Shown one piece after another: positions 12,540-32,496 of a stretch of DNA of 64,000 nt (position 1 is its first letter; each line of letters begins with the position of its first letter). The position numbers and the translations under genes were made by a program. Where the stretch lies: the NCBI GenBank assembly GCA_964524715.1, contig CAZGGF010000276.1:6135-70134 (forward strand). The letters are read 5' to 3'. Under the pieces are notes generated by a model, which was given only the letters and a program-made list of their open reading frames with translations, was not told the origin of the DNA and searched no databases. Origin of the DNA: an uncultured Verrucomicrobiota bacterium (GTDB lineage Bacteria; Verrucomicrobiota; Verrucomicrobiia; CAIQCK01).

Positions 12540-13730
12540 CTACATTCCGCCGACGATCGGATACCAGTCCGGGCGGCGCGGATCCTGATGGAAGCGGGCG
12601 TAGTAGTCGCCTTTCTCGGCGTAGTAGCGCTCGTATTTCGTCATCTTCTCCTCGTCGAGCACGACGCCGAGGCCCGGACCGGTCGGCACGCGCAGGCAAC
12701 CACCCTCATAACGCATCTTGCCGCCGACGATGATGTCGTCGGTGAGGTAGTTGTAGATGGCGTCGCCCGCAAAACGCATTTCTGGAATCGTGCAAGCCGT
12801 GTGGAGCATCGCCGACATCTCGATGCCGAACTCCGCGCCGCTGTGCATGCCGACGCCGAGGTTGAACGTCCGCAGCACGGCGCAGAGGTCCTTCACGCCG
12901 CGCGGGCCTTCCCAGTAGTGGAGGTCGGTCAACACGACATCCATCGCGCCGAGCCGGATCGCCGGGCCGAGATCGTCGAACTTCGCCGGATACATGTTGG
13001 TGGCAATCGGAATGCGCACCTGACGGCGCACCGCCGCAAGTCCCTCGATACCCCACGCGGGGTCTTCGAAGTATTCGAGGCCAAGCGGTTCGAGCCGGCG
13101 GCCAATGCGGACGGCGGTGGCCACGCTCCAGACGCCGTTGGCGTCAATCCGCAATCCGAAGTTTGGCCCCATGCGCTGGCGGCAAAGTTCCATCACGCGC
13201 ACTTCGACGTCGGGGTCCACAACGCCGCCTTTCATCTTCACGGTCTTCACGCCCAACTCGGCGTGGAGTTGCTCGCATTCTTCGACGAGGTCTTCGGCGC
13301 ACGTGTCATCGCCGCCGCCGGGCCGGTCGTAGCGCCAACTGATCTCGCCCATCAACGCCACACGGTCGCGCACCGCGCCGCCGAGCAGGTCGCACATCGG
13401 ACGGCCAAGCGCCTTGCCCTGAATGTCGAGACAGGCGATCTCGATCGCGCCGTAGAGCCGCGCGTTGGAGAGGTAATAGATGCTGCGCAGGACCTTGAGC
13501 TTGATCACTTCGAGATGGAATGGATCGAGACCAACGATGCGCGGCTTGAGCTTCATCAGCGCGCCGCGCTGGTCGCCGCCGCCAACCTCGCCGAGACCAA
13601 CGATGCCCTCGTCGGTGATCAGTTCGAGAATGTTGCGGATGAAATAGCCGGGATGGACGCCCGTATTGTGTCGCAACTGGCACGTGGTCGGGATCGCCAC
13701 CGTGCGCACTTTCATGTCAACGATCTTCAT
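12540..13730 (-). CDS. Enolase-superfamily enzyme, glucarate-dehydratase-like (paralogue 1)
   Basis: 396 aa. KxK (VKMKGG), LRIDANG, EYFEDP, PIATNM (Asn third metal ligand typical of the GlucD subgroup) and GMHS. The N-terminus RHNTGVHPGYFIRN...GLGEVGGG resembles GudD. Confidence 0.75.
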   Translation of the reverse strand: MKIVDMKVRTVAIPTTCQLRHNTGVHPGYFIRNILELITDEGIVGLGEVGGGDQRGALMKLKPRIVGLDPFHLEVIKLKVLRSIYYLSNARLYGAIEIACLDIQGKALGRPMCDLLGGAVRDRVALMGEISWRYDRPGGGDDTCAEDLVEECEQLHAELGVKTVKMKGGVVDPDVEVRVMELCRQRMGPNFGLRIDANGVWSVATAVRIGRRLEPLGLEYFEDPAWGIEGLAAVRRQVRIPIATNMYPAKFDDLGPAIRLGAMDVVLTDLHYWEGPRGVKDLCAVLRTFNLGVGMHSGAEFGIEMSAMLHTACTIPEMRFAGDAIYNYLTDDIIVGGKMRYEGGCLRVPTGPGLGVVLDEEKMTKYERYYAEKGDYYARFHQDPRRPDWYPIVGGM

Positions 13731-15265: not shown

Positions 15266-15268
15266 ACC

Positions 15269-16618: not shown

Positions 16619-16636
16619 TAGTGATCCTTCTATTCT

Positions 16637-17974
16637 CTACTTGAGGGTCAGAGTCGCCCGGGCTGGGCCGGCCTTGCTCTTGAGTTCAAACGGAAATTCA
16701 CGTTTCTCTTCGCCGACGGCAATCCGCAGTGAATACTTGCCGTGGAAGCCACGGAATTTCGCCCTGCCCTTGGCATCGGTTGTCAGCTTCAGGTGGGTTC
16801 TCCAGTCGTGATTGATCAGCTGTTCGAGCGCCCGATATGCAGGCTTCGGGTTCATTTCCTTGTCGAGCAGGCCGCCCAACGCCTTGTTTTCGTTTTCGTA
16901 AGCAGTACCATCACCGAGATTCCACCACGTGATGCCTGCTATCATTGGTGTGCTGAACCATAGACGGTAGTAATTGGCCACAATCGCCGCTTGAAGCTCC
17001 GCGCCGTTCTCGCCAACGCCGGGAACGGTGATCTCCGTAATGTAGAGCGGCAGACCCAACCGGCCGAGGCTGCTATAGACATCCTGGAGATGGGCCGGCG
17101 GATAGAGCTTGCCGCTGAGTACGGAATTACGACTGACATGGAACTGGACGCCGATGCCTTCAACGCGCGCCCCGCTCTGCTGCAAATCCTTCACTAACGC
17201 CATGTAATCGTAGGTGTCATAGTGGCCTTGAAGCTGGCCGTCGTTGATCAGCAGCTTCGCACTTCGCGGGAACAGCCGGCCCGCCTCCTGGAAACACCAC
17301 GTAAGATAGTCGTCCGGTACCGCATGCCACGTTTTGAAGTGAATGCGGCGCGGCATCTCCTCGTTGACTGCATCCCAGATCGGAATATCGCGACCGTAGC
17401 GTTCGGCAATCCCGGCCATGTGAATGGCGCCCTGACGCCTCAACATCTCGGCATCGTTGCGGGCCGTCCAATCGGGCATGAACTGGTTCTTCACATACAT
17501 CAGGGCGTGACCCTTCGGTGTAATGCCGTGAGCCTTGCACCACTTCACCAGCCGGTCCGGCGGAGGGCGGCGCCAGATGGGTGGTGAATCTTCGGCAAAG
17601 CGCGGCTTGCCCTGTTGCGGCTCCAACTCACGCCAGTAGAACGGCACAGTGGCAAAGTTGAAAAGATTGGTGAACGCCGCCTCGTATTTGCGGTTGAGTT
17701 CCGGGGTCGCAAGCTGGTCAAGGGCAAACAGGTTACACCCAAAGAGAAACTCGTGCGTCTGCTGGCAGATTTCCACGGTTGCGTTCGCCAACGGCTTGCC
17801 GTCTTTGCCAACAACTTCGATGGTCGCGTCGCCTTTGCGGTGCTTTTCAATGCCTTGCTCGATGCGCCCGGACACGGCAGGGTCGTCCCAAAGCGCCCGG
17901 AACGTGTCAGGGACTTCTGCGCCAACAGTTGTGGCGACGAGACTCAGCACCAGGACGAATTTCAGGATCTCCAT
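16637..17974 (-). CDS. GH10-family glycosidase (paralogue 2)
   Basis: FLFGCNLF, PKGHALMYV, WDAVNEE and LYITEITVP. Same architecture as 15269-16618. Confidence 0.75.
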   Translation of the reverse strand: MEILKFVLVLSLVATTVGAEVPDTFRALWDDPAVSGRIEQGIEKHRKGDATIEVVGKDGKPLANATVEICQQTHEFLFGCNLFALDQLATPELNRKYEAAFTNLFNFATVPFYWRELEPQQGKPRFAEDSPPIWRRPPPDRLVKWCKAHGITPKGHALMYVKNQFMPDWTARNDAEMLRRQGAIHMAGIAERYGRDIPIWDAVNEEMPRRIHFKTWHAVPDDYLTWCFQEAGRLFPRSAKLLINDGQLQGHYDTYDYMALVKDLQQSGARVEGIGVQFHVSRNSVLSGKLYPPAHLQDVYSSLGRLGLPLYITEITVPGVGENGAELQAAIVANYYRLWFSTPMIAGITWWNLGDGTAYENENKALGGLLDKEMNPKPAYRALEQLINHDWRTHLKLTTDAKGRAKFRGFHGKYSLRIAVGEEKREFPFELKSKAGPARATLTLK

Positions 17975-17986
17975 GCGGGTCTCCGT

Positions 17987-18730
17987 TCACACTTGTTTCT
18001 TGCGAAGGGTCCGGATCACTTCGATGAGACGCACAACGATGGCATCGAGCAACCGCTCGCCCTTCTCCGCCGTCGCGAGTTCAGCGTAACCGATACCGCC
18101 GTGCTGGGTCTGCGCCTTCATATCGAGTGCGACATAGACACCACGCAATGCCTTCGGCTGCCGCGTGGCCAACAAGTCGTTGTGGATGGCGTCGCGCCGC
18201 ACCAAATCCGGACGGACCGCGAGCATCATCGCCGTCTCCGCCTCGCACGCATGCCCGATGCATTTCATCGGGCCTTCAACGATTTTCGCGATCTCCTCGG
18301 TAGCCACATCCCAATAGTTCGCGCCGCAGAGCTGCGCGCCGGGAAACTCCACCGCAAGCTGGCGTTGGGCGAGGTGGAATCCGTCCTTGTTGCCGCCGTG
18401 GCCATTGAGCACAAACTGGCGCTTGAACCCGTGCCGCAGCAGGCAACGCATCGGCTCAGCGATGAGCTTGATATACGTTTCGTTCTCCGCGCTCAACGAT
18501 CCCGCCATGCCGAGGTGATGCAGGGACGCGCCGAGCCATTGCACCGGCAGCAGCAACACGTCCTTAGGCAACGCCGCCTCGACGCGATCCGCAATGGCAC
18601 CGCACAGGATCGAATCAGTGAAGAACGGCAGGTGTCGACTGTGCTGCTCCAGCGCGCCGATGGGATGAACAACGACAACGTCGCGCTTGAGTTTGGCCAC
18701 ATCAGGCCACGTCAGGTCGGCTAGTTTCAT
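17987..18730 (-). CDS. Creatininase-family amidohydrolase
   Basis: PIGALEQHSRHLPFFTDS and VLNGHGGN motifs. The start was set at MKLADLTWPD (CAT 18728-18730), which overlaps the stop of the upstream DUF1080 gene (ATGA). Confidence 0.75.
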   Translation of the reverse strand: MKLADLTWPDVAKLKRDVVVVHPIGALEQHSRHLPFFTDSILCGAIADRVEAALPKDVLLLPVQWLGASLHHLGMAGSLSAENETYIKLIAEPMRCLLRHGFKRQFVLNGHGGNKDGFHLAQRQLAVEFPGAQLCGANYWDVATEEIAKIVEGPMKCIGHACEAETAMMLAVRPDLVRRDAIHNDLLATRQPKALRGVYVALDMKAQTQHGGIGYAELATAEKGERLLDAIVVRLIEVIRTLRKKQV

Positions 18731-19608
18731 GGGGTCGCCTTCAAGGGTTCGAGGTCCAGTTTCCGATACACAATCTCCGCCTCCTCCGTCTGGATCAGGA
18801 TTCGGCCCTCGGTCATGCTGCAATCCTTCGCTTCGTTGACCAGCGTGCCGTTAACGAAGTAGGTGAAATCGCCACCGCGCACAATCGCTTCAACGTGCGT
18901 CCACTCCCCCATCGGCGACTCGACATCCTGTTTGCCGCGGAAGCCAACTTCGTCCTTCCAGTCGGGGTCGCGTCCCCACCAGTTCAGGCGGAACGCCTCG
19001 AACGGCCGCAATTCGGCGTTCTTGTCAAAGACCGGCTCGCCGTCGCGGTCCTTGCTGTAGCGCGCGCGAAGTGTCGTGCGCGAGAACGTGCCGTCCTCCA
19101 TCCAGCCGCTCAACACGAGGATATCACCCACGCCACCCTCGATGACCTGCAACTCGATGCCCTTCATCCAAGGCGACTCGAGCTTGCCCGAGAACTTTGC
19201 CTTGGGGGACATGGCGCAGTTGCCCGGCCGGCCCGTGCAGTGCAGCAGCAGGCCGTTGTCGCGCGCCTTCTTCTCGCGCTTGCCCGACGTAGCCCCTGTC
19301 CAGCGAAACTCCATGACCAACCGGTAGTCGCGATAGCTGTTTTTCGTGATAAGCCCGCCATAACCATGGCCGGTGACGCGCAGCAATGGCCGGCCCGTGG
19401 CGTCCTTTTCCATGCGGAAAACCTTCTCCGGGTCGTTGTTCAGACCGAGCCCGGCGATCCACGTATCGAACTGCGCCAGACAATCCGGCGAGTCATTCAC
19501 CAGGTGGATCACCTGCTTTGGCGTGATGGCGGCGGACTGGCATTTGTCGGCGCCGAAGGCTGACAACGCCATTACTTGAAGAATGACTGCGATGACACAT
19601 GTTCTCAT
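18727..19608 (-). CDS. DUF1080 (3-keto-disaccharide hydrolase-like) domain protein, secreted
   Basis: Start set at MRTCVIAVILQVMALSAFG (19608). YRDYRLVMEFRW...NGLLLHC...GIELQVIE...WTHVEAIVRGGDFTYFVNGTLVN...GRILIQTEEAEIVYRKLDL matches the DUF1080 jelly-roll pattern. Confidence 0.7.
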   Translation of the reverse strand: MRTCVIAVILQVMALSAFGADKCQSAAITPKQVIHLVNDSPDCLAQFDTWIAGLGLNNDPEKVFRMEKDATGRPLLRVTGHGYGGLITKNSYRDYRLVMEFRWTGATSGKREKKARDNGLLLHCTGRPGNCAMSPKAKFSGKLESPWMKGIELQVIEGGVGDILVLSGWMEDGTFSRTTLRARYSKDRDGEPVFDKNAELRPFEAFRLNWWGRDPDWKDEVGFRGKQDVESPMGEWTHVEAIVRGGDFTYFVNGTLVNEAKDCSMTEGRILIQTEEAEIVYRKLDLEPLKATP

Positions 19609-19645
19609 GAGTGCTTTTCCTTGATCATACGTACTGCCGATTATT

Positions 19646-20836
19646 TCATGTCCCGCCAACAATCGGATACCATTCCGGCCGGCGCGGATCTTGATGGAAG
19701 CGGGCGTAGTAATCGCCCTTCTCTTCGAAGTACTTTTCATAGCGGCGCATCTTCTCCTCGTCGAGCTTTACTCCGAGGCCGGGACCCGTCGGCACGGCAA
19801 TCTTGCCGTCCACGTATTTCATCAGGCCGCCTTCGATGATGTCGTCGGTGAGGAAATGATAATGCGCGTCGCCGGCAAAGTGCATCTCCGGGATCGTCGA
19901 AGCCGTATGCAACATCGCGGCCAGTTCGATGCCAAACTCTGCCCCGCTGTGCATCGCCACGCCGAGGTTGAACGTGCGGCAAACCGCGACAAGGTCCTTC
20001 ACACCGCGCGGACCTTCCCAATAGTGCAGGTCGGTGAGCACGATGTCCACGGCGCCGAGACGAATCGCGGGACCGAGGTCATCGAACTTGTTCGGATACA
20101 TGTTCGTCGCGATGGGAATGCGGATGGCTTTGCGGACGGCTGCGTTGCCTTCAAGCCCCCACGCCGGGTCTTCGAAATACTCCATGTTTACCGGCTCCAA
20201 CCGGCGACCGATGCGCGTGGCGGTGGCAACGGACCACGTGCCGTTGGGGTCCATTCGCAGTCCAAACGACGGTCCCAATCGCTCGCGGCAAAGCTCGACG
20301 ACCCGCGCCTCCTCATCCGGCGGCATCACGCCCGCCTTGAGTTTCATCGAGTTCACGCCGAGCGTTTCGTGCAATTCCTCACAGAAATCGGCCATGTCTT
20401 CGGCGCATTTGTCGTCGCCGCCCTGCGGCCGGTCGTAACGCCAGAACAGGTAGGCAATCATCGGCACCGCGTCGCGCACGCGTCCGCCAATCAAGTCCGA
20501 CATCGGCCGGCCCAGCACCTTGCCCTGAATATCGAGGCATGCCATTTCAATGGCCGCGTAGAGCCGCGAGTTCGACAGGTAGTAGATGCTCCGCAGCACC
20601 TTGAGTTTGATGACCTCGAGATTGAACGGGTCGAGTCCCAGGATGCGCGGCTTCAATTTTGCCATCGCGCCGCGCTGGTCGCCGCCCCCCATCTCGCCGA
20701 GACCGACGATGCCCTCGTCAGTCATGATTTCGATGACGGTCCGCAAAAGATACCCCGGGTGGACACCCGTGTTGTGTCGCAACTGGGCGTTGAGTGGGAT
20801 GGCGACTGTGCGTGCCTTTAGATCAATGATTTTCAT
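19646..20836 (-). CDS. Enolase-superfamily enzyme, glucarate-dehydratase-like (paralogue 2)
   Basis: 396 aa, collinear with 12540-13730 and about 75% identical by eye. Same catalytic motifs: MKLKAG, LRMDPNG, EYFEDP, PIATNM, AMHS. Confidence 0.75.
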   Translation of the reverse strand: MKIIDLKARTVAIPLNAQLRHNTGVHPGYLLRTVIEIMTDEGIVGLGEMGGGDQRGAMAKLKPRILGLDPFNLEVIKLKVLRSIYYLSNSRLYAAIEMACLDIQGKVLGRPMSDLIGGRVRDAVPMIAYLFWRYDRPQGGDDKCAEDMADFCEELHETLGVNSMKLKAGVMPPDEEARVVELCRERLGPSFGLRMDPNGTWSVATATRIGRRLEPVNMEYFEDPAWGLEGNAAVRKAIRIPIATNMYPNKFDDLGPAIRLGAVDIVLTDLHYWEGPRGVKDLVAVCRTFNLGVAMHSGAEFGIELAAMLHTASTIPEMHFAGDAHYHFLTDDIIEGGLMKYVDGKIAVPTGPGLGVKLDEEKMRRYEKYFEEKGDYYARFHQDPRRPEWYPIVGGT

Positions 20837-21593
20837 TGCAAGTCCTGAGCGTGGCGTGTTGATTCAATTCGACGGCTTTGCGGGCCACGAGCCGCTGCCA
20901 TTCTTCAAGTTGTTGTTTGCCATGGCCGTGAATCAGCCCGGTAAGTGTCAGCGCGCCTTCGATTCGCCCCTCGTCGTCCAGCAACGGGGCAGCAATGCCG
21001 AAGATATCCGGACGGTAGGTTCCAAGATCAATGACCACGCCATGGCGGCGCACTTCCTTGACGCGTCGCAGCACGTCGGCCGGCTTCTGCCACTGCCAGC
21101 AGCTTTCGGGAGCGGCCCGAATAACTCGCGTTACTTCCGTGTCATCCAACCCACTGAGCAAAACCGAACCCGAAGCGCCCAGCGTAAGATGGAACCGTGA
21201 TCCCGCCCGCACCGCCAGCGCCATCGGCTCGGCCGAATCCTCCCGCAATACCGTCAGCGCATAGTCGTCTTCGCGGGTGGAAACCTTGCTGGCGACGCCA
21301 GTGCGAGCCGTCAATTCCTGCAATGCATCAGACACCTTGCGGCTCAATAGTTCATGGCGCTGGATACGATGCAGCAGCGGGAACAATCCCACACTCAACT
21401 CGCAGCGGCCATCTCCACCCACTCGAATCCATCCCGCTTGGGCGAAGGTCTGGACGATGCGGTAACAGGTGGCAGGGGCGATCCTGAGCGTGCGAGCCAG
21501 CGAGGTGGCCGTGGGTTCGCATTGCCCGTCCGCGAGAGCGTTCAGCACTTGAATCGCATTTCGCAGCATCGGAATTTGGTAGGCTCGCATCAT
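20823..21593 (-). CDS. IclR-family transcriptional regulator
   Basis: N-terminal wHTH (AIQVLNALADGQCEPTATSLARTLRIAPATCYRIVQTFAQAGWI) plus a C-terminal IclR effector domain. The 3' end overlaps the enolase start by 14 nt. Confidence 0.8.
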   Translation of the reverse strand: MMRAYQIPMLRNAIQVLNALADGQCEPTATSLARTLRIAPATCYRIVQTFAQAGWIRVGGDGRCELSVGLFPLLHRIQRHELLSRKVSDALQELTARTGVASKVSTREDDYALTVLREDSAEPMALAVRAGSRFHLTLGASGSVLLSGLDDTEVTRVIRAAPESCWQWQKPADVLRRVKEVRRHGVVIDLGTYRPDIFGIAAPLLDDEGRIEGALTLTGLIHGHGKQQLEEWQRLVARKAVELNQHATLRTCNENH

Positions 21594-21594
21594 T

Positions 21595-21626
21595 TCAATA
21601 GAGAATGTGTCATCTCAATACAGAAT
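21595..21626. promoter_or_regulatory. Direct repeat TCAATA(G/C)AGAAT x2, 20-bp register, abutting the iclR start codon; candidate operator
   Basis: tcaatagagaat (21595-21606) and tcaatacagaat (21615-21626) match at 11 of 12 positions, in an AT-rich patch of the iclR/ACT-gene divergent intergenic region. Confidence 0.3.
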
Positions 21627-21812
21627 ATACACCAACCCTGTCAACTGTTTTTCTGGACCCCGGCACCGCACCTCCCCTGTTTTCGCCGCCGGCTGGCATC
21701 GAGTATCCGCCAGACTCCTTTGCGCTCATAGTCCACGCAAAGCTTGCGCACGATTCACGGTACTGTAAGCTAACGTGAGTAAACCGAGTGAAATCAACAA
21801 TCAGGGAGCGAC

Positions 21813-22346
21813 ATGCGCCAATATCTTGTGCTTTCAGCCATCGGCCCGGATCGACCGGGCATCGTGAATGCCATCTCAAAGCTGATCTTTGACCACGGCT
21901 GCAACCTTGAAGACAGCCGCATGGCCATTCTGGGCGGCGAGTTTGCCATTGTCGTTCTGATATCCGGCAATCCTGATAAGACTGAGAAGCTCCGGAACGA
22001 TGTGCCGGCATTCGGCAACAAAGCCGGCTTGATCATCACCACCAAACCGACGAGCGCACCCGGTGCCCGCGAGCTGAAGAGCGCCCGGCGCTACACGGTC
22101 CACGCCGTTGGGCTGGACCACGAGGGCATTGTCCACCAGATCACACACGCGCTGGCTTCGCTCGGCGTGAACATTGAGACGCTGGAGAGCACCACCGCGC
22201 CCGCGCCGCACACCGGCGACCCGCAGTTCATCCTCGACATGCAGATTCAGCAACCCGCGCAGCTCACAGAAGAACAAATGCGCGAGAGACTCACCGAGGC
22301 GTGCGAGGCGGTGAATGTGGATGTCGAGATTCTGCCCGTCGAGTAG
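21813..22346 (+). CDS. Tandem ACT-domain protein, GcvR (glycine cleavage system transcriptional repressor)-like
   Basis: YLVLSAIGPDRPGIVNAISKLIFDHGCNLEDSRMAILGGEFAIVVLISG, then a second ACT (YTVHAVGLDHEGIVHQITHALASLGVNIE). A GGGAG Shine-Dalgarno sequence precedes the ATG. Confidence 0.75.
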   Translation: MRQYLVLSAIGPDRPGIVNAISKLIFDHGCNLEDSRMAILGGEFAIVVLISGNPDKTEKLRNDVPAFGNKAGLIITTKPTSAPGARELKSARRYTVHAVGLDHEGIVHQITHALASLGVNIETLESTTAPAPHTGDPQFILDMQIQQPAQLTEEQMRERLTEACEAVNVDVEILPVE

Positions 22347-22421
22347 CTGGCAGCCTTCGACCGTTGACTGTCTGCGGCGCATTCTCGGCTGAAAGCCAGA
22401 AGCTGCCAACCAGGAGCCTGC

Positions 22422-23228
22422 TCAAATCGTCTGCGACAGGAAGCCGCCGTCCACGCGAATGTCGGTGCCAGTAACAAAGCTGCTGGCCTTGGCGCTCGCC
22501 AGAAAGACGCACGCGCCAACCAACTCCTGTGACTCGCCGAAGCGGCCCATTGGCGTGTGTCCCCAGATCGCCTTGGTGCGCGCAGAGGGCGTGCCGTCGT
22601 CGTTGAAGAGCAACTTGCGGTTCTGTTCAGCAGGGAAGAATCCGGGCGTGATCGAATTCACACGCACACCCTTGGTGGCCCACTCACGGGCGAGGAACAA
22701 CGTCAGGCTCACAACGCCAGCCTTGGCAGCGCTGTAACTGATGACACGCGACAGTGGCAAATGAGCACTGACGCTCGCGATATTGATAATACTGCCCTTG
22801 CCGCGCTTGCACATCGCGGGACCAAACTCCTGGCACGGCAGCAACGTGCCGCCAACGAGATTGAGGTCAAAATTCGCGCGCCAATCATCCGTCGAGATGC
22901 TTTCGAAAGGATGATCATTCGTCACGGTGACTTTCGGGTCATTGCCGCCGGCGGCATTGATGAGAACCGTCGGCGCACCCAGCGTCGCGCTGATGCGCTC
23001 ATGCGCCTCCGTGAGGCTGCGCCGGGATACAGCGTCGGATGAGAAGAAACCCGCTTGGCCGCCCTGGTCGCGAATGGACTTCGCGCGCGCTTCGCCGCGT
23101 TCCTGATTGCGCCCCAGCACGGCGACCTTCGCCCCCGCCGCAGCCAGTCCTTCTGCCAGTGCGCCGCCCAAAACGCCCGTGCCGCCAATGACCACTGTGA
23201 CTTCGCCCGTAAGATCGAAAAGATTCAT
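22422..23228 (-). CDS. Short-chain dehydrogenase/reductase (SDR)
   Basis: Start set at MNLFDLTGEVTVVIGGTGVLGGALA (23228). NAAGGN, SSVSA...YSAAKAG. Confidence 0.8.
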   Translation of the reverse strand: MNLFDLTGEVTVVIGGTGVLGGALAEGLAAAGAKVAVLGRNQERGEARAKSIRDQGGQAGFFSSDAVSRRSLTEAHERISATLGAPTVLINAAGGNDPKVTVTNDHPFESISTDDWRANFDLNLVGGTLLPCQEFGPAMCKRGKGSIINIASVSAHLPLSRVISYSAAKAGVVSLTLFLAREWATKGVRVNSITPGFFPAEQNRKLLFNDDGTPSARTKAIWGHTPMGRFGESQELVGACVFLASAKASSFVTGTDIRVDGGFLSQTI

Positions 23229-23397
23229 ATTTATTGTTCCGTTGGTTTCTTGCAGCCACCGCGTTTCTGCGCCATTCACCCGCGCGTGTCAAGGCGCGTT
23301 GTAATCCCGCCGCCGCTTCAACGACAGTCCAGGCACTTCGCTCTTGTAACTCTTGTGCTAATTTTGAACAGTAAGCGCAGCAGCCAAAAAAGCAAAG

Positions 23398-24566: not shown

Positions 24567-25709
24567 CTAGAGGTACTCGCTGCCGAACTGCTCCCCCACG
24601 AGTTTGTGCATTTCCTTGATCGTCTCGGCCTGATCGGCGCGGCAAACGAGCGTGGCGTCGGGCGTGTGGATGACGATGAGGTCTTCGCAGCCTATCGTGG
24701 CAATGAGGTGTTTCGGATCGTTGGAAGCAACGAGCGAATTCTTCGTCCGGCGCAACAGATGACGCGCAGCGATGGCATTGCCATCCGCGTCGCGCTGGCA
24801 CGTCTGAGCAAAGAACGGCCACGAACCGACATCGAGCCACTTCAGCGGCATCGGCACCGCCGCGACGCGCACCTTCGGATCGCGCGAGGCCGGCTCCATG
24901 ACGGCAAAGTCCACACTGATCTTCTTCAACGTCGGATAGACTTCCGCAAGCACCGTGTTGCGTCGTCGCGTGTTCCACGCATCGGCAACGCGCATGATGC
25001 CGGCATGGTTCTCCGGCGAATAGCGGCGGATGCAATCGAGCAACGTGTCCGCACGCCAGATGAACATGCCGCTGTTCCAAAGATAACGGTTCGCGCCAGC
25101 CTCGAAGTAACTTTGCACGGTCTTGGCGTCCGGCTTTTCCTTGAACTGCTCGACGACACGCGCTGTAGGCCGCGTGCCCTCACGCGGCGCATCGGCTTCG
25201 CCCGGTGAGGGCACCGGGCCTACAAGCGGCGCGCCGAGCTGGAGATAACCATAGCCGGTCGCCGGCCCGGTTGGCGCGATGCCAAACGTGACGAGAGCGT
25301 TCGGAAATTTCTCAACGACTGCATAGCCGCTCGCGACGATCCGTTGGAACTGGTCCACCGGTTCGATGATGTGGTCGGCGGTGAAAACGGCAATGATGGC
25401 ATCCGGATCGCGCCGTGCGATGACAGCAGCGCTGAAACCTACTGCGTTTAGCGTATCGCGGCCGCAAGGCTCACCCAGAAAACGGTCTCCTTTGAACGCG
25501 GGCAGCGACTTCTGTATGACAGCGCGGTGCTTGCTGGCGGCGCAGACAAACCGCTGTGCCGGCGGCACGAGTCCGTCAAGACGCTCGGTGGCAATTTGCA
25601 GCAGGCTCTTGCCACCGATGAAGGGGATGAGTTGTTTCGGCAACGACTCGCGGCTCATTGGCCAGAGCCGCGTGCCTGATCCGCCTGCCATGATCATTGC
25701 GTGTCGCAT
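24567..25709 (-). CDS. manC: Mannose-1-phosphate guanylyltransferase
   Basis: Start set at MRHAMIMAGGSGTRLWPMSRESLPKQL (25709). GYGYLQLG...EQFKEKP. There is no C-terminal PMI cupin. Confidence 0.8.
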   Translation of the reverse strand: MRHAMIMAGGSGTRLWPMSRESLPKQLIPFIGGKSLLQIATERLDGLVPPAQRFVCAASKHRAVIQKSLPAFKGDRFLGEPCGRDTLNAVGFSAAVIARRDPDAIIAVFTADHIIEPVDQFQRIVASGYAVVEKFPNALVTFGIAPTGPATGYGYLQLGAPLVGPVPSPGEADAPREGTRPTARVVEQFKEKPDAKTVQSYFEAGANRYLWNSGMFIWRADTLLDCIRRYSPENHAGIMRVADAWNTRRRNTVLAEVYPTLKKISVDFAVMEPASRDPKVRVAAVPMPLKWLDVGSWPFFAQTCQRDADGNAIAARHLLRRTKNSLVASNDPKHLIATIGCEDLIVIHTPDATLVCRADQAETIKEMHKLVGEQFGSEYL

Positions 25710-25744
25710 AGTGTATGGTCCGTGACGCGTGATGGGTGACTTGT

Positions 25745-25877
25745 GATTCGCAACTCGTAATCCGTGATTTGCGAATCGAAACCTGCCAGCCACCGTTCCT
25801 TGGCAAACTAGTATACCCTATATCGAACCGCGAGTCACCAGTTACGAGTCAAAGTCACGAATCTCGGATTACGAATC
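25745..25877. repeat. Intergenic cluster of inverted/direct repeats built on CGTAATC/CGAATC words
   Basis: The 9-bp inverted repeat GATTCGCAA (25745-25753) / TTGCGAATC (25769-25777) has a 15-nt spacer. The 10-bp inverted repeat TCGTAATCCG (25755-25764) / CGGATTACGA (25865-25874) has arms about 100 bp apart. ACGAATC is repeated at 25857 and 25871. Confidence 0.5.
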
Positions 25878-25882
25878 CCAAT

Positions 25883-26704
25883 TCAAAACCCCCTCAAATT
25901 CGTACTGCTGCGGCGCGTCAGCCCCTCCTTCGGGACGCGCTTGAGCACGAGATATTGGATGCCGTTCTTCTCGCAGAACTCGCGTTTCTCCGGTTTGTCG
26001 CCGTCTTCGTTGACGGCGTAAATGTCGGGCTTGATCCGCCGCATCTCCGGCTCGGCATCGAGCCAGCCCCAACCGGTCGTAATGAGCGCCTGGTGGACGT
26101 AGCGGATGCAGGCGCAGAGGTAACGGCGCTCGTCCTCTTTGAACAACGGATGGCCCGCGCCTTTGAGATTCTCCACGTTCGCGTCGTTGCCGGCGATGAC
26201 ATAGAGATCGCCGTGCTCCGAAACTTCCTCAAAAAAACGGACGTGGCCTGAGTGGAACCAATCGTAGCAACCCGTGACAACGACTTTCTTACGACCCGAT
26301 GCCGGCGGCACGATGGCAAGGTCGGCTTTCGGAAAACCAGCACAGCTCTTGGCGGAAACGACATGATAACCAAGACCATGCGCCTCACAAAATGCCCGTT
26401 TGGCAGGCGTGTCATGCGGTTCATCCACGGCCCAGATGTCGGGCCGAATGTCGTCGCACAACGGCAGCGTGTCGGGATTGAATGCGCCGTTGATAATCTT
26501 GACATCCCGCACGTAACGAATGGCTCCGAGCAGATAAAGCCGCTCGGCTTGCGGAAACTTCGGGGCCTTGCCAGTGACGGCGCGGACCATGTCGTCGGAC
26601 CAGAGCAGGACGTTGACATCGCCGAGCTTGGCGGCTTCTTCGAGGAAGCGGACCTGCGGCGAGCGCAAGTCATCGAAGCTGGCAGAGATGGCAACGCGTT
26701 TCAT
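25883..26704 (-). CDS. Tandem cytidylyltransferase-fold protein (degenerate N-terminal domain + canonical HxGH C-terminal domain)
   Basis: Start set at MKRVAISASFDDLRSPQVRFL (26704). The second domain is VVVTGCYDWFHSGHVRFFEEVSEHGDLYVIAGND. In the first domain the HxGH position reads RSPQ. Confidence 0.7.
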   Translation of the reverse strand: MKRVAISASFDDLRSPQVRFLEEAAKLGDVNVLLWSDDMVRAVTGKAPKFPQAERLYLLGAIRYVRDVKIINGAFNPDTLPLCDDIRPDIWAVDEPHDTPAKRAFCEAHGLGYHVVSAKSCAGFPKADLAIVPPASGRKKVVVTGCYDWFHSGHVRFFEEVSEHGDLYVIAGNDANVENLKGAGHPLFKEDERRYLCACIRYVHQALITTGWGWLDAEPEMRRIKPDIYAVNEDGDKPEKREFCEKNGIQYLVLKRVPKEGLTRRSSTNLRGF

Positions 26705-26711
26705 CGTCGTA

Positions 26712-27512
26712 TCATTTCGCGATGCGGACATGGACGCGGAACGCGCCGGGCACGGGATTCTCGGACAACACGTAGAGATAACCGCCGCCACAACCCGAAT
26801 ACATCGCGCCGGGATACCGCGACTGATAGCGCTTCATCAACGCAACGAGATCGACTTTCAATGTCGGATGCCGGACGACGTGCGGCAGCAACGCTTCCCA
26901 GCACGCCATGCACTCGTTCATGGATGCGCCAAGAGCCTCAATGTCCCGCGCGAGAATGGCGTCGTAGCAATCCCTGCCCGACCGGCCGAGCCGTTGAATC
27001 CATTTCGGGTCGAGGTTCTTCACACCGAGCGGACTGTAGCCTTCGGGCCGCGGCTCGACGGGCAACACGTTGATCACCTTCTCCAACCAGCGGGCGATCT
27101 TCGGGTCGTTGTTGGACTCGATGTGCACGGGGAAGATGCCCCCCGCATGCGTGAACTCGTAATCGAGCCGGTTCACGCCAGGATAGATCAAGCCGATCAT
27201 ATCCTGGCTGCCCGAAGGTTCGGCTTTGCCTTTGTTCTCCTCGGCGTAGAGTTCCTCGACGAGCTTCGCCGGCTTGCCGGCTGGCAAACGGCCGCCCCAC
27301 AGCTTCAACGCGATCTTGCGTGTGCCGGTGGCCATGCCGGCGCGCTCCATCCAACGGAATGCCGGCTCCAAGCCGATCACCACCATCGAACCCGGCGGGG
27401 TTGGATTGAGTTTCGAGACGAACGGCTGGTCAATCCAGCCGCCCGCCAACGCGATGCGATACGGAATCCCGCCAATGACGTCCGTCAACTTGCCGCCTGG
27501 CTTTTTCGGCAC
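26712..27512 (-). CDS. Short GHMP-kinase-like protein (fucokinase/HddA-type motif I and III, degenerate motif II)
   Basis: IPYRIALAGGWIDQPF (motif I-like), PSGSQDMIG in place of GSGLGSSS, and YSGCGGGYLYVL (motif III-like). 266 aa. Confidence 0.5.
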   Translation of the reverse strand: MPKKPGGKLTDVIGGIPYRIALAGGWIDQPFVSKLNPTPPGSMVVIGLEPAFRWMERAGMATGTRKIALKLWGGRLPAGKPAKLVEELYAEENKGKAEPSGSQDMIGLIYPGVNRLDYEFTHAGGIFPVHIESNNDPKIARWLEKVINVLPVEPRPEGYSPLGVKNLDPKWIQRLGRSGRDCYDAILARDIEALGASMNECMACWEALLPHVVRHPTLKVDLVALMKRYQSRYPGAMYSGCGGGYLYVLSENPVPGAFRVHVRIAK

Positions 27513-27531
27513 GGTCGCGTCCTTTCGCGGA

Positions 27532-28548
27532 TCAGATGACGTCGCGCACCGTTGCCTTGCCGGCCTTGCGGTCGCGATATTGCTGTTCGATCCACTTGTA
27601 GGTGATGCCCAGACCTTTGCGGAACGGCATATTCGGCTCCCAGTTGAGCATCTTCTTGATGAAGGTGTTGTCGCTGTTGCGTCCGGCTACGCCACGAGGC
27701 GCGTTGAGGTCATACTGCCGCTTCAGCTTCACGCCGCCAATCTCCTCGGCGAGGCTGACCAAATCGTTGATGGAGATCAGTTCGCTCGTGCCAAGGTTGA
27801 TCGGCGTGGCAATCAGCTTGTCGCTGTGCATGATCATGTCAATGCCCTTGAGGCAATCGGCGATGTACATGAAGCTGCGCGTCTGGTGACCGTCACCCCA
27901 GATGACGATTTCTTTTTTGCCGGTGTCCTTCGCCTCGATCACCTTGCGGCAAATGGCGGCCGGCGCTTTTTCACGACCGCCGTCCCAAGTGCCCCACGGC
28001 CCATAGACATTGTGGAAGCGGGCAATGGCGGTTTTCATGCCGCGTTCGGCCCAGTATTCCTGGCAGAACATTTCCGAAAGCAGTTTCTCCCAGCCGTAGC
28101 CGCGCTCTGCGTAAGCCGGATAGGCGTCGCTCTCCTTGAGCGCACGGCAATTCGGGTCTTCCTGCAGCTTGACGTTATAGGCGCAAGCCGAGCTGGAATA
28201 GAAGTAACGTTCGCAGCCGGCGCGGTTGGCCGCCTCGATGAGATGCGTGTTAATGAGAATGCTGCGCAGGCACTCGATGCGAAACCGCTCGATGAAACCC
28301 ATGCCGCCCATGTCGGCGGCGAGGTTATAGACCTCCACCGCGTCCTTGACGGCGGCTTTGCAGTTGGCCTCGTCGCTGAGGTCCATGCACCAACTCTCCA
28401 CGCCGGGCGTGCGCTGATACCACAGCGGCAGCGGCTTCTTATCCACCGCGCGAATGCGGGTGAAGCCCTTGTCGTGAAAATGACGCACCAACGAACCTCC
28501 AATGAAACCACCGGCGCCGCCTACGAGGATCAGATCATTCTTGTTCAT
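27532..28548 (-). CDS. gme: GDP-mannose 3,5-epimerase
   Basis: ILVGGAGGFIGGSL, NLAADMGGMGFI, YSSSACAYN, FHNVYGPWGTWDGGREKAPAAICRK, WGDGHQTRSF and GRNSDN are near-identical to recalled plant GME blocks. Confidence 0.88.
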   Translation of the reverse strand: MNKNDLILVGGAGGFIGGSLVRHFHDKGFTRIRAVDKKPLPLWYQRTPGVESWCMDLSDEANCKAAVKDAVEVYNLAADMGGMGFIERFRIECLRSILINTHLIEAANRAGCERYFYSSSACAYNVKLQEDPNCRALKESDAYPAYAERGYGWEKLLSEMFCQEYWAERGMKTAIARFHNVYGPWGTWDGGREKAPAAICRKVIEAKDTGKKEIVIWGDGHQTRSFMYIADCLKGIDMIMHSDKLIATPINLGTSELISINDLVSLAEEIGGVKLKRQYDLNAPRGVAGRNSDNTFIKKMLNWEPNMPFRKGLGITYKWIEQQYRDRKAGKATVRDVI

Positions 28549-28630: not shown

Positions 28631-29569
28631 TTGCCACGTCTGCAAATGGATAGGGTTGACTCTTCGATGGATATTATTGACCGCAAATCCAAACCGGTCT
28701 CCCAGCCGAAGTTCATCTCCACGCAGGTCTCCGACGTGCGTTATTACTACCTGGATCTGCGTCCCACCCCAACGCGCGGCATTACTGTCGTCTGCGGCGG
28801 CCGCGAACGGTGCAATCCCGAATACGTCATCAGCCGGCGGGAATTCCCATTCCTCTCGATCGAATACGTCTCGCAAGGCCGCGGCGAAGTGAAGGTCGCG
28901 CGCCAGACATTCCGCCTGCAGGCCGGCTCGGTATTCTCCTATGCGCCCGGCGTGCCCCACACGATCCGCAACGACCCGAAAGACCCGATGGTGAAATACT
29001 TCGTGGACTTCACAGGCAGGGAAGCGGCACGGATGCTTCGGGACAGTCCGCTGCGGCACGGTGTTGTCCAGCTTTCGGCGCCCGGCGAAATCCTCGACAT
29101 CTTCGAAGACCTCCAACGCCAGGGCAGCCGCAACGCGCCAGGAAGCGCAGCCATCTGCGCGGCCCTTGTGCGACTGCTCATCCTGAAGATCCTCGCGTTC
29201 GCCGTGCCGGAGCGGGAAGCCGACGCGCGGGCGCTGGCTACCTACCAGCGTTGCAAGCGGCAGATTGAACAGCACTTCCTCGGTTTGCGCTCGCTGGCGC
29301 AAGCCGCACGCGCATGCCACGTGGACCAGGCGTATCTCTGCCGGCTCTTCCGGCGCTTCGACCACCAGACGCCCTATCGTTATCTCGTGCGGCTGAAGAT
29401 GAACCGCGCTGCCGAGCTGCTGCTCGGCACTGGCAGGCTGATCAAACAGGTGGCGGAGGAACTCGGCTTCTCTGATCCCTATCACTTCTCCCGCGTCTTC
29501 AAATCGGTCCACCGCGTCGCGCCGGCGCGGTTCATTCAAGCGGGCCATCGGCGAATGGATCGACGCTGA
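28631..29569 (+). CDS. AraC-family transcriptional regulator (cupin + HTH)
   Basis: C-terminal AraC HTH: YLCRLFRRFDHQTPYRYLVRLKMNRAAELL...IKQVAEELGFSDPYHFSRVFKSVHRVAPARF. The start may be an internal Met. Confidence 0.85.
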   Translation: MPRLQMDRVDSSMDIIDRKSKPVSQPKFISTQVSDVRYYYLDLRPTPTRGITVVCGGRERCNPEYVISRREFPFLSIEYVSQGRGEVKVARQTFRLQAGSVFSYAPGVPHTIRNDPKDPMVKYFVDFTGREAARMLRDSPLRHGVVQLSAPGEILDIFEDLQRQGSRNAPGSAAICAALVRLLILKILAFAVPEREADARALATYQRCKRQIEQHFLGLRSLAQAARACHVDQAYLCRLFRRFDHQTPYRYLVRLKMNRAAELLLGTGRLIKQVAEELGFSDPYHFSRVFKSVHRVAPARFIQAGHRRMDRR

Positions 29570-29589: not shown

Positions 29590-32496
29590 TTACTGCGGAT
29601 TTGTCAGCACGACATCCTTCTGGCGCGACTTCGGCGTAACGACGAGGTCCACCAGCTTCCCGCCGCGAAAGCGACCCTCGACGGTCGTGCGACGCGGTGC
29701 GTGGAGTTTGAAGTGGAGGTTCCAATCCTTTGGCCATGCGGGCAGAACGTAAATCTTCCCGCCGTCGGCGTTCATGATCATGTGTTGGAGCGTGAGCAGG
29801 ATGTTGCCGCCATGGTCCTGGTCGGGCAGCCAGTCAAAGTTCGGCCCCCACATCGCCGGGAAACGGAAGTTGCGATGCGAGTTGCGAACCTTGTGGAGGA
29901 TCTGCTTTTTCGCCTCGTCGGTCATGCCGAGCAGGGCGGCGCACTGGCCATCGTAGCACCAGCCGGTCATGATCTTCGCACCGCGGCGGTTGAATGTCTC
30001 GATGCCCGTTTCCAATCCAGGCCGACCCACGGCGAACAGTCGGAAAGGCCACATCGCGTAAAGCTCCGGGTTCTCACAGTTGTTGCGTTTCGGATCGAAC
30101 TTCTCCGCGGGCAGCACAAAACTCCTGCCGTCTTCAGAGCGCACCGGCACGGACGGCGCGGCAGCCTTCATCTTCACCCACAGTTCGCGATCCGCGGCGG
30201 GCGCGGCGTCCTTCGGCAGCGCAAGCAACCTGTCGAGCACGGACTGCAAACCCGCAACGGTCGGCGTGTCGTTGACCACGTTGAACCAGTAGGTCTCGAC
30301 GGCTTGCGTCGGACTGATGATGAGCTTGCCGTTCGCGTCGCGCTGGAACCGCGTATCGAAGTAGCGCAACACTTCCCGCGCCATGGGCACGAGTTCATCA
30401 GCAAGGAACTTCGCGTCGAGCGTGCGCTCGTGGCAGTCGAGCATGAGTTGTACCAGTTCCCATCCCTGCTGCCACGCGTAGCACCAGTACTTGCCGGCCA
30501 CATCGCCCGGTTGCTTGCCCGTCCGGTCCCAGCCGTAGTCGCGGTTTGCATAGGTGCCGAAGCTCGTCATGGTCTCAGGAAAATACACACCCTCGGCTCC
30601 GTAATAGAGCTTCGCGCGCGCCTTACAGATCGGCAGCACGTCGCGGTACATACGGAATACCGCGGCGCACAGGTCGTAGTCGCCGTTCGCGACCGCGGAC
30701 CACGCCGGGAAACGCGTGTTCTGCCACCAGAAACAATCACCCCACCGCCGCCAGTCCGGGTTGAACTTCTGCTTTGGGTCGGTGAGTTCCGGGTCCACCG
30801 TAAAGATCGAGCCATTGAACTTGGTGGGGAAACTGCCCCGTCCGGCGCACGCTGCCATCCAGCGTTGGAGCACATAGGCGCGCGTCACCATCGAGGGCGT
30901 CGGCTGCTCCATGCCACCACCGCCCTCAGCTTTCAGCAACTTGCCGTTGAGATACAACCGTCTGCCATCCGCCGCCGCGTCAAACACCGCCACGACGTGG
31001 TTCCACGCGCCAAGCTGCAGCACATCGTTGACTGCCATCGCGTGCTGACCGGTTATGAACCGCAGGCTGCGGCCCGGATGTGTATCGAAAAGAAACCCGT
31101 CACCCTTGCCGGCGGTGAGCTTGTCAAAAATGCGCGCGCTCCCCGCCTTTGCATCGGGCCGAATCCAGGCTTCGATCGTGAAGCTGTTTGTGAACGCGAG
31201 GCACATCTCGTTTGGCACCTCGATGTGTCCGCCGCCAAACGCCGCCACCCTTGCGCCATCTGACTCCTCAAACTTCACCGCGCCGACCACTTTCGCGCCA
31301 TCCGGCGCAGTGTTGAATCTCCATCCGACCAGCCTGCCATCCGCAACGGCTGCCGCATCGCCCGGCTTTCCCGACGCTAGCGACGCGATCTCCGCATCAC
31401 TGAGCGGGCGGTGATAGACCGTCGCGCGACTCATCGCGCCGCGGAACTTGCTGCCGCCGTTGCTATCGGCTCCGATACGCAGCGGGTGCGGATTCGCCAG
31501 CAATGCCGCGACGGCAACGTTATCCCCCTCGACGAAAATCCAGCTGCGATTCCAGAACGCATTCCACCAAGTTCTTGTTGCGTTTTCGGCGGCAGTACTA
31601 TTGCCCGACGACACGGCAACGGCGGCCAGTCCCTTCTCCCAAGTCGTCAGGGTGTCAGCCACCGCCGAGTGCGTCGCGACTCGAATCGCGAACCGCTTCA
31701 TGGGCGCGGATGATTTCAGCGCGGTTGCGCCGTCTTTTACGAAACCCGGCGCTGATATCGAACCGCCGAAGGTGCGGCGCAAGATTGGGTCTTTCACCAA
31801 ATCGGCAAACTTCTCCAGACTCTGGTGCTTCAGCGTCAGCGGCACGCAGGAATGTTCATTGCGGTGATACCACGTCACAGCACCGCCCGTGTCTTTGACC
31901 ACGTCTGCCGATTCCCACACCTCGATCTCCGGTGGTCCAGCCTGCATGGTCCAGCTTGAGCCAAGCTCGCCGCCTGTGAGCACCTTCTTCTCCGTCCGCC
32001 AGCATTCCAGTTGTGTCCTCACGCTGAGCGGCTGCCTGCTCTCACCCACGACGTGGATCACCGGCGCGTTTGCATCCACGAAGATGCGTATCTTGGATGT
32101 GGGACGCTGAGTGTTGGATTGCGGCCCGGCGGTATCGCCCGTGGTGATTTCAATGCACCCTTCTCGCAGCTTGAGTTCCTGGCGGAACGGCACACCCTTC
32201 GAGAACGGGTTCGGCGTCAGCGACACGCGCACACCACCGAGCTTGAGCAACCGCGACGCCTCGCTCCAAGCGTCGGTGCGGCCGATATAGAAGCGAAGGT
32301 CGCCGTCCTTTTCGACCCAGACGTTAAGGCCGACCTCGCCATTGCCAATGGGCATTGAGCCCGCGGCGGTTTCGCTGGGCGTTTCCCAAACAACATTGTA
32401 ACGATCCAATTCAGCAGGCGCGCTGGCTGATATTGTCGTGGATGCGAGAGCGGCAACAACGCAGAGGATGGAGAATCGGTTCATGACGGGCAGCAT
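29590..32496 (-). CDS. DUF5703-N/six-hairpin glycosidase-like protein with inserted LamG (concanavalin-like) domain
   Basis: 968 aa with a signal peptide. YNVVWETPSETAAGSMPIGNGEVGLNVWVEKDGDLRFYIGRTDAWSE is typical of DUF5703/GH95-like N-termini. LamG core: FTIEAWIRPD...GFLFDT...WNHVVAVFDAAADGRRLYLNGKLL. Confidence 0.6.
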   Translation of the reverse strand: MLPVMNRFSILCVVAALASTTISASAPAELDRYNVVWETPSETAAGSMPIGNGEVGLNVWVEKDGDLRFYIGRTDAWSEASRLLKLGGVRVSLTPNPFSKGVPFRQELKLREGCIEITTGDTAGPQSNTQRPTSKIRIFVDANAPVIHVVGESRQPLSVRTQLECWRTEKKVLTGGELGSSWTMQAGPPEIEVWESADVVKDTGGAVTWYHRNEHSCVPLTLKHQSLEKFADLVKDPILRRTFGGSISAPGFVKDGATALKSSAPMKRFAIRVATHSAVADTLTTWEKGLAAVAVSSGNSTAAENATRTWWNAFWNRSWIFVEGDNVAVAALLANPHPLRIGADSNGGSKFRGAMSRATVYHRPLSDAEIASLASGKPGDAAAVADGRLVGWRFNTAPDGAKVVGAVKFEESDGARVAAFGGGHIEVPNEMCLAFTNSFTIEAWIRPDAKAGSARIFDKLTAGKGDGFLFDTHPGRSLRFITGQHAMAVNDVLQLGAWNHVVAVFDAAADGRRLYLNGKLLKAEGGGGMEQPTPSMVTRAYVLQRWMAACAGRGSFPTKFNGSIFTVDPELTDPKQKFNPDWRRWGDCFWWQNTRFPAWSAVANGDYDLCAAVFRMYRDVLPICKARAKLYYGAEGVYFPETMTSFGTYANRDYGWDRTGKQPGDVAGKYWCYAWQQGWELVQLMLDCHERTLDAKFLADELVPMAREVLRYFDTRFQRDANGKLIISPTQAVETYWFNVVNDTPTVAGLQSVLDRLLALPKDAAPAADRELWVKMKAAAPSVPVRSEDGRSFVLPAEKFDPKRNNCENPELYAMWPFRLFAVGRPGLETGIETFNRRGAKIMTGWCYDGQCAALLGMTDEAKKQILHKVRNSHRNFRFPAMWGPNFDWLPDQDHGGNILLTLQHMIMNADGGKIYVLPAWPKDWNLHFKLHAPRRTTVEGRFRGGKLVDLVVTPKSRQKDVVLTNPQ

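Follow-up and report, generated by a model that had tools for sequence, protein, structure and literature searches.

L-Galactose is available from several sources, including pectin rhamnogalacturonan II (RG-II), some xyloglucans, red-algal galactans, and animal and microbial glycans. To our knowledge, all known bacterial pathways for this sugar are oxidative, and GDP-mannose 3,5-epimerase (GME), which acts on GDP-sugars only, provides the sole known interconversion of D- and L-hexoses at C3 and C5. In the verrucomicrobium Luteolibacter sp. LG18, a proven oxidative L-galactose cluster (lgu) carries an AraC-type activator and 'rbsD', and this route proceeds from L-galactose via L-galactonate and D-tagaturonate to 2-keto-3-deoxygluconate (KDG) (PMC12632266). 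The one bacterial GME that has been characterized was attributed to lipopolysaccharide (LPS) synthesis, and the equilibrium of the plant enzyme is reported to be unfavorable towards GDP-L-galactose (PMC8787198). Here, a 64,000-nucleotide stretch of DNA from an uncultured Verrucomicrobiota bacterium (assembly GCA_964524715.1, contig CAZGGF010000276.1, positions 6,135 to 70,134 of the forward strand; hereafter the window) is described, in which a GME gene is followed by genes for a kinase-like protein (KIN), a cytidylyltransferase-fold protein (CT) and a mannose-1-phosphate guanylyltransferase (ManC). With modest confidence, we favor an inducible GDP-level route for free L-galactose, running through L-galactose-1-phosphate (L-Gal-1-P), GDP-L-galactose and GDP-mannose to mannose-1-phosphate (Man-1-P). 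In the literature searched, neither a nucleotide-sugar route for L-galactose nor a report linking GME to bacteria of the Planctomycetes-Verrucomicrobia-Chlamydiae (PVC) group was found.

The module and its divergent regulator gene are arranged as follows:

28631-29569, plus strand: AraC-family regulator with a cupin sugar-binding domain (Pfam AraC_binding and HTH_18)
27532-28548, minus strand: GME, GDP-mannose 3,5-epimerase, first gene of the operon (338 aa, ATG start)
26712-27512, minus strand: KIN, predicted GHMP-fold sugar kinase (266 aa, GTG start)
25883-26704, minus strand: CT, predicted tandem cytidylyltransferase-fold protein (273 aa from MKRVAIS)
25710-25882, minus strand: CT-manC spacer of 173 nucleotides (nt) with a promoter-like site, read from the sequence
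24567-25709, minus strand: ManC, mannose-1-phosphate guanylyltransferase without a phosphomannose isomerase (PMI) domain (380 aa from MRHAMIMAGG)

An initial annotation of this DNA had described four co-directional genes with gaps of 7-170 nt as ManC, a tandem CT, a GHMP-like kinase and a plant-like GME. The corresponding open reading frames (ORFs) were located on the minus strand, and the four identifications proved right by domains, fold and alignment, with measured gaps of 19 nt (GME-KIN), 7 nt (KIN-CT) and 173 nt (CT-ManC). The AraC gene is separated from GME by 82 nt. The ManC ORF can be extended to a GTG at 25793; a longer CT start, giving a 302-aa GTG ORF, was rejected because it overlaps KIN and is unsupported by homologs. 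The source genome is a verrucomicrobial metagenome-assembled genome (MAG) with a completeness of 74% and DNA of approximately 60% G+C, which encodes both PMI and phosphomannomutase (PMM). A run search returned only DNA-type or unclassified sequencing runs, and none of RNA type.

The identity of the epimerase was established by comparison with the Arabidopsis GME 2c59 and with 8sg0, which it matched over the full length with 254 bits (E 2e-74), whereas the next-best family, GDP-fucose synthase, reached 83 bits; the Pfam domains Epimerase and GDP_Man_Dehyd were also detected. The protein is approximately 50% identical to plant GME, and the WGDGxQTRSF and GRNSDN blocks are nearly unchanged, which favors GDP-hexose substrates. 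Counted in the alignment, the catalytic triad S120, Y151 and K155 of the window enzyme corresponds to S143, Y174 and K178 of the Arabidopsis enzyme, while the acid/base pair and the Cys-acidifying Arg, namely C122, K194 (within GGREKAP) and R290 (within GRNSDN), correspond to C145, K217 and R306. These six Arabidopsis positions have been described as diagnostic of GM35E relative to GalE and GDP-fucose synthase, and GMER carries a His and a Lys in place of the C145/K217 pair (PMC8787198). Judged by its conserved residues, with all six defining positions kept, the window enzyme is a bona fide GM35E. Its orthologs in other phyla are 58-98% identical, with a median of 77%.

KIN produced zero Pfam matches and zero NCBIfam matches, and a sequence search of the PDB yielded a single match, below threshold, to the fucokinase portion of Fkp. 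An AlphaFold 2 model built from a 32-sequence alignment had a predicted local distance difference test score (pLDDT) of 89.6, and a Foldseek search with this model returned 82 PDB matches at E<=0.001, of which the top 50 listed are all GHMP enzymes with query TM-scores (TMq) of 0.42-0.63. The best among these listed matches were the heptokinase WcbL (E 6e-8), the Fkp fucokinase 9iip (TMq 0.63) and the HddA-like 3k85, and KIN is approximately 60-100 residues shorter than the matched enzymes. Four motifs are conserved across the 32 sequences (AGGWIDQP, G(M)AT(G/S)TR, SGSQD and SGCGGGY), with GGWxDQP, SGSQD and SGCGGGY being invariant; the last of these is a candidate counterpart of GHMP motif III (G-x-G-G-G). 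As modeled, KIN is a miniature GHMP-fold sugar kinase whose nearest structural matches are heptose and fucose anomeric kinases, and it is proposed to act as an L-galactose 1-kinase. More than 7,500 homologs are present in databases, all of them titled 'hypothetical', and an exhaustive HMMER search with KIN gave 681 representative clusters.

Additional information on KIN was provided by a Pfam domain scan of ten longer and more distant homologs (35-46% identity). Fusions of CT and KIN (approximately 385 aa) and of CT, CT and KIN (approximately 540 aa) were detected, together with one case of rhaM (L-rhamnose mutarotase)-CT-KIN and a phosphorylase-CT-KIN protein (P0218), which gave the sole GHMP_kinases_C match among the ten; two of the ten are fused to glycosyltransferase domains (GT2 or TcdA-like). 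The existence of such fusions suggests that KIN acts on a free sugar and that its product is passed to a CT-type nucleotidyltransferase. A 384-aa fusion paralog of this kind (L064:5563-6717, minus strand; 39% identical to KIN, HSGH intact, motif II SGMASSTR) was observed in a Chloroflexia MAG, where it is convergent to a complete GME>KIN>CT>ManC-like>FucU module; this genome contains two adjacent kinase/transferase sets, perhaps for two different sugars. Paralogs 34-39% identical to KIN are also encoded in approximately 6% of the sampled Verrucomicrobiota genomes (G180, G207, G184 and about 16 more), in open frames of approximately 390 aa, which is the usual size of a CT-KIN fusion.

For CT, a PF01467 (CTP_transf_like) match was found at residues 172-266 of the 302-aa ORF (46 bits against a 21-bit cut-off), and the two halves of the protein align with 39% identity (E 2e-26). 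On the strength of this match and this internal repeat, CT is assigned a tandem fold. The best NCBIfam match is rfaE_dom_II (heptose-1-phosphate adenylyltransferase), and CT also resembles glycerol-3-phosphate cytidylyltransferase. In the C-terminal half, H151-x-G153-H154 and R265-x-S-T are present in 56 of 56 orthologs, and the conservation of H151-S-G153-H154 and R265-x-S267-T268 amounts to 53-56 of 56. In the N-terminal half, FHSGH is replaced by LRSPQ in the window protein and by R/K-S-R/P-D/H/Q in its orthologs, and HxGH is restored in none of the 56. As read from these motifs, the N-terminal half is a duplicate lacking the catalytic motif, unlike ECT/PCYT2 with its second domain catalytic. 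CT is proposed to be an L-Gal-1-P nucleotidyl (guanylyl) transferase. Under the broader proposition weighed below, KIN would be a mini-GHMP L-galactose-1-kinase founding a family that lacks a Pfam model, and CT would be a GTP:L-Gal-1-P guanylyltransferase of the cytidylyltransferase fold in which a pseudo-enzyme domain has been conserved.

The gene order is widely conserved. ORFs in relatives were predicted with a composition log-odds caller and by tblastn with the core proteins, and 81 non-redundant loci were compared; each denominator below counts the loci with sufficient flanking sequence for the feature in question. GME immediately precedes KIN at 66 of 72 loci, and CT immediately follows KIN at 57 of 72. 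An AraC ortholog (41-98% identical) is divergent from GME at 32 of 65 loci, ManC or NUDIX follows the module at 19 of 56, and an RbsD/FucU mutarotase is located nearby at 10 of 49. Relatives of KIN are encoded in at least 571 stretches of species-representative genomes. The best 80 of these, with KIN identities of 67-97%, belong according to record titles (NCBI labels) to Verrucomicrobiota, Planctomycetota, Chloroflexota, Lentisphaerota, Acidobacteriota, Latescibacterota, Hydrogenedentes and one gammaproteobacterium. Overall, the order GME>KIN(>CT) is kept at 67-98% identity in at least seven phyla. Within Verrucomicrobiota, the distribution of the KIN ortholog is patchy, with matches of at least 54% identity in 5 of 300 sampled genomes besides the source genome. 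The KIN tree offered no firm evidence for inter-phylum transfer: 14 phylum-label changes were counted against a minimum of 6, and well-supported branches force one.

These data bear directly on the possibility that four unrelated sugar-nucleotide genes, for example from heptose or CDP-glycerol metabolism, lie side by side by accident. Such a reading could draw on the resemblance of CT to heptose-1-phosphate adenylyltransferase and glycerol-3-phosphate cytidylyltransferase and on the heptokinase-like fold of KIN. However, GME>KIN>CT is shared at the above level of identity by seven phyla, KIN-CT fusions occur among distant relatives, and heptose and teichoic-acid genes are absent from the families listed for the surveyed neighbors, making chance adjacency extremely improbable. 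The heptose and CDP-glycerol readings were both rejected, since their companion genes are absent.

The genes surrounding the module were surveyed using 286 proteins encoded within 5.5 kb at 69 loci, with the 25 commonest families listed per batch. Recurrent families include GFO/IDH/MocA oxidoreductases, glycoside hydrolase family 29 (GH29) fucosidases, sulfatases, GH43, sugar transporters and FucI. At one locus (L010), SSF<FucU<AraC< is followed by GME>KIN>CT>NUDIX, in which the NUDIX protein is of the NDP-sugar pyrophosphatase type, and rhamnose catabolism genes adjoin. At a second locus (L097), FucU< is followed by GME>KIN>CT>PMI>ManC>SSF, the only occurrence of PMI as a module partner. At a third (L073, Chloroflexia), genes for a GH31-GH29 glycosidase and an ABC importer precede a one-strand run encoding LacI, GME, KIN, CT, a ManC-like protein, FucU, a TIM-barrel isomerase, FucI, an FGGY kinase and a class II aldolase; this is the single case in which the module is joined by a GH29 fucosidase and the full FucI-FucK-FucA operon. 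Judged by gene content, these three loci look like complete utilization units, in which all Leloir-type roles are assignable.

Considering the partners of the module as a whole, namely sugar-responsive regulators, a mutarotase, importers, an NDP-sugar pyrophosphatase, mannose-6-phosphate isomerase, fucose-catabolic genes and alpha-L-fucosidases, assimilation of free L-galactose is the function they point to. The observations on which the scheme is built are the identity of GME, the GHMP fold of KIN, the HxGH nature of CT, and the gene order with its partners. In the proposed route, L-galactose would be freed extracellularly by GH95- or GH29-type enzymes and then imported, its anomers being equilibrated by the RbsD/FucU mutarotase where one is present. 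KIN would phosphorylate the sugar at C1 to yield beta-L-Gal-1-P, and the active C-terminal half of CT would transfer GMP from GTP onto L-Gal-1-P, forming GDP-L-galactose. GME would then operate in its thermodynamically favored reverse direction to give GDP-D-mannose, a direction that fits the unfavorable equilibrium towards GDP-L-galactose reported for plant GME (PMC8787198). Man-1-P could be released by ManC through pyrophosphorolysis (GDP-mannose + PPi -> Man-1-P + GTP), regenerating GTP, or, in other genomes, by the NUDIX NDP-sugar pyrophosphatase, which would make the step irreversible. PMM and PMI would convert Man-1-P into fructose-6-phosphate, and the operon would be switched on by the divergent AraC regulator in response to the sugar. 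The broader proposition, that a GDP-based, non-oxidative 'Leloir pathway for L-galactose' with two new enzyme activities and a catabolic GME exists in at least seven phyla, has in our view about as much for it as against it.

The proposed exit enzyme deserves separate consideration. ManC contains an NTP_transferase domain (PF00483, 102 bits, with the GGxGTRLWP loop) and a ManC_GMP_beta-helix domain (PF22640, 55 bits), and its score against TIGR01479 (244 bits) falls below the cut-off only through the absent PMI half; these matches identify ManC as a standard GDP-mannose pyrophosphorylase that lacks a PMI domain. The notion of a dedicated paralog was rejected, since the module-linked ManC is usually the only copy: no other was found in the 74%-complete source genome, and it is also the sole copy in 8 of the 12 other genomes where ManC follows the module. 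For this reason, ManC cannot settle the direction of flux, and it probably serves as a housekeeping enzyme as well. The spacer upstream of manC is rich in repeated GATTCG, GTGACT and TCACG words and contains a sigma-70-like match at 25838-25810, suggesting that manC is separately transcribable. The spacer may act as an operator/promoter, and manC expression may be independent of the AraC-controlled genes.

Several points weigh against L-galactose assimilation. The sugar (L-galactose), the nucleotide used by CT (GTP) and the direction of flux were all deduced from context. Motif II of KIN (R-A-G-M-A-T-G-T-R) is related to the GHMP consensus P-x-G-S-G-L-G-S-S-A and yet deviates from it, with G59, T64 and R65 invariant among the 32 sequences. 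Most neighbors beyond the core module are unrelated to sugars or to each other, and a few loci have RmlD- or Polysacc_synt-type neighbors. The presence of ManC beside the module, and also of PMI at L097, fits biosynthesis equally well. At L098:7968-17481, GME>KIN occurs without CT, and a 304-nt gap separates the pair from downstream genes for a canonical GHMP kinase, a sulfotransferase and three glycosyltransferases, the single clearly biosynthetic-looking context met. Finally, about one fifth of the loci have GME>KIN without an adjacent CT, and 9 of the 12 genomes of this type (G001-G004, G007-G009, G011 and G012; loci L016, L017, L028, L057, L069, L074, L077, L080 and L084) contain no CT orthologs genome-wide at E<=1e-10. 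Either another transferase serves in these nine genomes or the scheme is incomplete, and the case for three strictly required enzymes is weakened. At a further locus, L079, a weak CT-like match was noted elsewhere in the genome, and an HD-domain protein overlaps the KIN end by 14 nt.

Some of these points suit a reading in which GDP-L-galactose (or GDP-L-gulose) is produced by the cluster as a glycan precursor, with ManC and GME forming a de novo arm and KIN and CT an Fkp-like salvage arm, as the initial annotation had suggested. The product would then be consumed by a glycosyltransferase whose gene lies elsewhere. Its salvage arm, a kinase followed by a nucleotidyltransferase, gains support from the GHMP fold of KIN, the CT-KIN fusions and the near-invariant adjacency of KIN and CT. 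The use of the product for a surface glycan would agree with the adjacent ManC being the only one of the genome, the shared operon of PMI and ManC at L097, the sulfotransferase and three glycosyltransferases just downstream of GME>KIN at L098, the glycosyltransferase fusions of some distant KIN homologs, and the LPS role attributed to the characterized bacterial GME. Apart from L098, the context does not support this purpose. Glycosyltransferases, both of family 1, account for only 2 matches among the families listed for the 286 neighbors, and no glycosyltransferase occurs among the 31 annotated window ORFs (13.7-58.8 kb). A co-operonic NDP-sugar pyrophosphatase would destroy the product, and AraC/LacI regulators, importers, mutarotases, FucIKA and GH29 are typical of utilization loci. 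Decoration of a neighboring giant protein was likewise suggested in the initial annotation, but the giant ORF (38677-46059, minus strand, 2460 aa) lies 10 kb from the module and gave no Pfam match at E<=1e-4; the interval between them holds two BNR/sialidase-like genes, a beta-propeller gene and an islet of lower G+C, and no link to the cluster was found in the window annotation. Glycan supply is accordingly regarded as a minority possibility. The companion statement that bacterial GMEs are rare is misleading for this clade, given the abundance of the KIN partner in databases and species-representative genomes.

The loci lacking CT are also relevant to a further alternative, according to which the module acts on another substrate (L-fucose, L-gulose, D-altrose or a modified L-hexose), CT uses ATP or CTP, or GME and KIN perform a CT-free reaction. 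In addition to the nine genomes without a CT ortholog, this alternative is in line with neighbors annotated for fucose (GH29, FucI and FucU) rather than for L-galactose specifically, and with an adenylyltransferase, rfaE domain II, being the best family match of CT. Against it, the similarity of GME to the plant enzyme argues for a GDP-hexose, and the PMI in the operon at L097 would be of use only if mannose phosphates are formed. The idea that L-fucose is the main substrate was rejected: 3,5-epimerization of GDP-L-fucose would yield GDP-D-rhamnose, which has no obvious fate, PMI and FucIKA are found together with the module, and L-fucose is already served by FucI, FucK and FucA in the operon at L073. 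Taken together, a different substrate or nucleotide appears unlikely, and GDP-level assimilation of L-galactose remains the reading that we prefer.

Other features of the window include the following:

29590-32496, minus strand: secreted DUF5703/LamG/GH95-like glycosidase of 968 aa, by Pfam
52758-53141, plus strand: RbsD/FucU-family mutarotase (PF05025, 90.7 bits)
13727-23279, downstream of the module: polysaccharide/sugar-acid block with a pectinase-like beta-helix protein, two GH10 proteins, a 3-keto-disaccharide-hydrolase-like protein, an enolase-superfamily dehydratase, an IclR regulator and a mannonate-oxidoreductase-like short-chain dehydrogenase/reductase (SDR)
12540-13730: 396-aa ORF of the same length as the enolase-superfamily dehydratase

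The glycosidase has matches to DUF5703_N (276 bits) and Laminin_G_3 and a weak GH95 catalytic match (22.8 bits, below the 27-bit cut-off). GH95 covers both alpha-L-fucosidases and alpha-L-galactosidases, and the protein is a possible supplier of free sugar; its gene also adjoins the module in the three closest relatives (L011-L013). On the side of the module opposite this enzyme, the flanking gene run includes two enolase-superfamily proteins. The window mutarotase shares 70% identity with its ortholog beside the module at L010, but is located 24 kb from the module here, among ORFs without Pfam matches, and its neighbors are uninformative; the NCBIfam label of its clade is 'D-ribose pyranase', with a score just at the cut-off.

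If L-galactose assimilation is correct, carbon-cycle models would gain a pathway for those Verrucomicrobiota, Planctomycetota and Chloroflexota that degrade polysaccharides, and a protein family whose 'hypothetical' members number in the thousands would acquire a function. GME would be shown to run in the reverse of its textbook role, and annotation would have to be corrected, because such GMEs would cease to imply L-galactose in the envelope. Moreover, a compact L-galactose kinase and an L-Gal-1-P guanylyltransferase would become available for the preparation of GDP-L-galactose and other rare GDP-L-sugars.

Among known systems, the oxidative L-galactose routes of Phocaeicola vulgatus and LG18 have the same proposed substrate as the module, but involve no nucleotide sugars and share no enzymes with it; the lgu cluster comes from the same phylum as the window and has the same kinds of accessory genes (AraC-type activator and rbsD), which makes it an independent parallel to the module. 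In HldE and HddA-HddC, too, a sugar kinase works together with a nucleotidyltransferase; among curated families CT comes nearest to HldE domain II, and the Foldseek list of KIN is headed by the heptokinase WcbL. The substrates of these systems are heptose phosphates for LPS or capsule, whereas the module is accompanied by no heptose genes and by neither the isomerase GmhA nor the phosphatase GmhB. The GM35E enzymes of plants and Methylacidiphilum belong to the same family as the window GME, being approximately 50% identical with identical catalytic residues, and have been placed in biosynthesis (ascorbate, cell wall and LPS). Unlike them, the window GME is encoded by the first gene of a sugar-regulated operon that also contains a kinase gene, and it probably works in the direction of GDP-mannose.

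The two closest functional parallels are Fkp/FKGP and the Leloir/Isselbacher pathway. In Fkp of Bacteroides and FKGP of plants, a GHMP kinase is followed by a guanylyltransferase and the sugar is of the beta-L-6-deoxygalactose type, and the same is proposed for the module; the fucokinase part of Fkp (9iip) has the highest TMq to KIN among the listed Foldseek matches. However, the Fkp transferase is of the NTP_transferase (GlmU-like) type rather than the cytidylyltransferase fold of CT, KIN is approximately 100 residues shorter than the Fkp fucokinase domain, and Fkp feeds glycan synthesis uncoupled from an epimerase. The Leloir/Isselbacher pathway (GalM, GalK, UDP-sugar pyrophosphorylase and GalE) would share its logic with the module, in that a mutarotase, a GHMP anomeric kinase, a nucleotidyltransferase and an SDR epimerase, controlled by a sugar-responsive regulator, would convert an epimer that cannot otherwise be used into a common hexose phosphate. 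The module would differ in being GDP-based rather than UDP-based, in performing a double C3 and C5 epimerization from an L- to a D-hexose, in using a 266-aa kinase of a Pfam-less family and a transferase of the HxGH fold with a dead duplicate domain, and in leaving the nucleotide level via ManC or NUDIX instead of GalT. Compared to both Leloir and Fkp, the nucleotide (GDP), the L-to-D double epimerization, both activating enzymes and the exit step are thus the features in which the proposed route differs.

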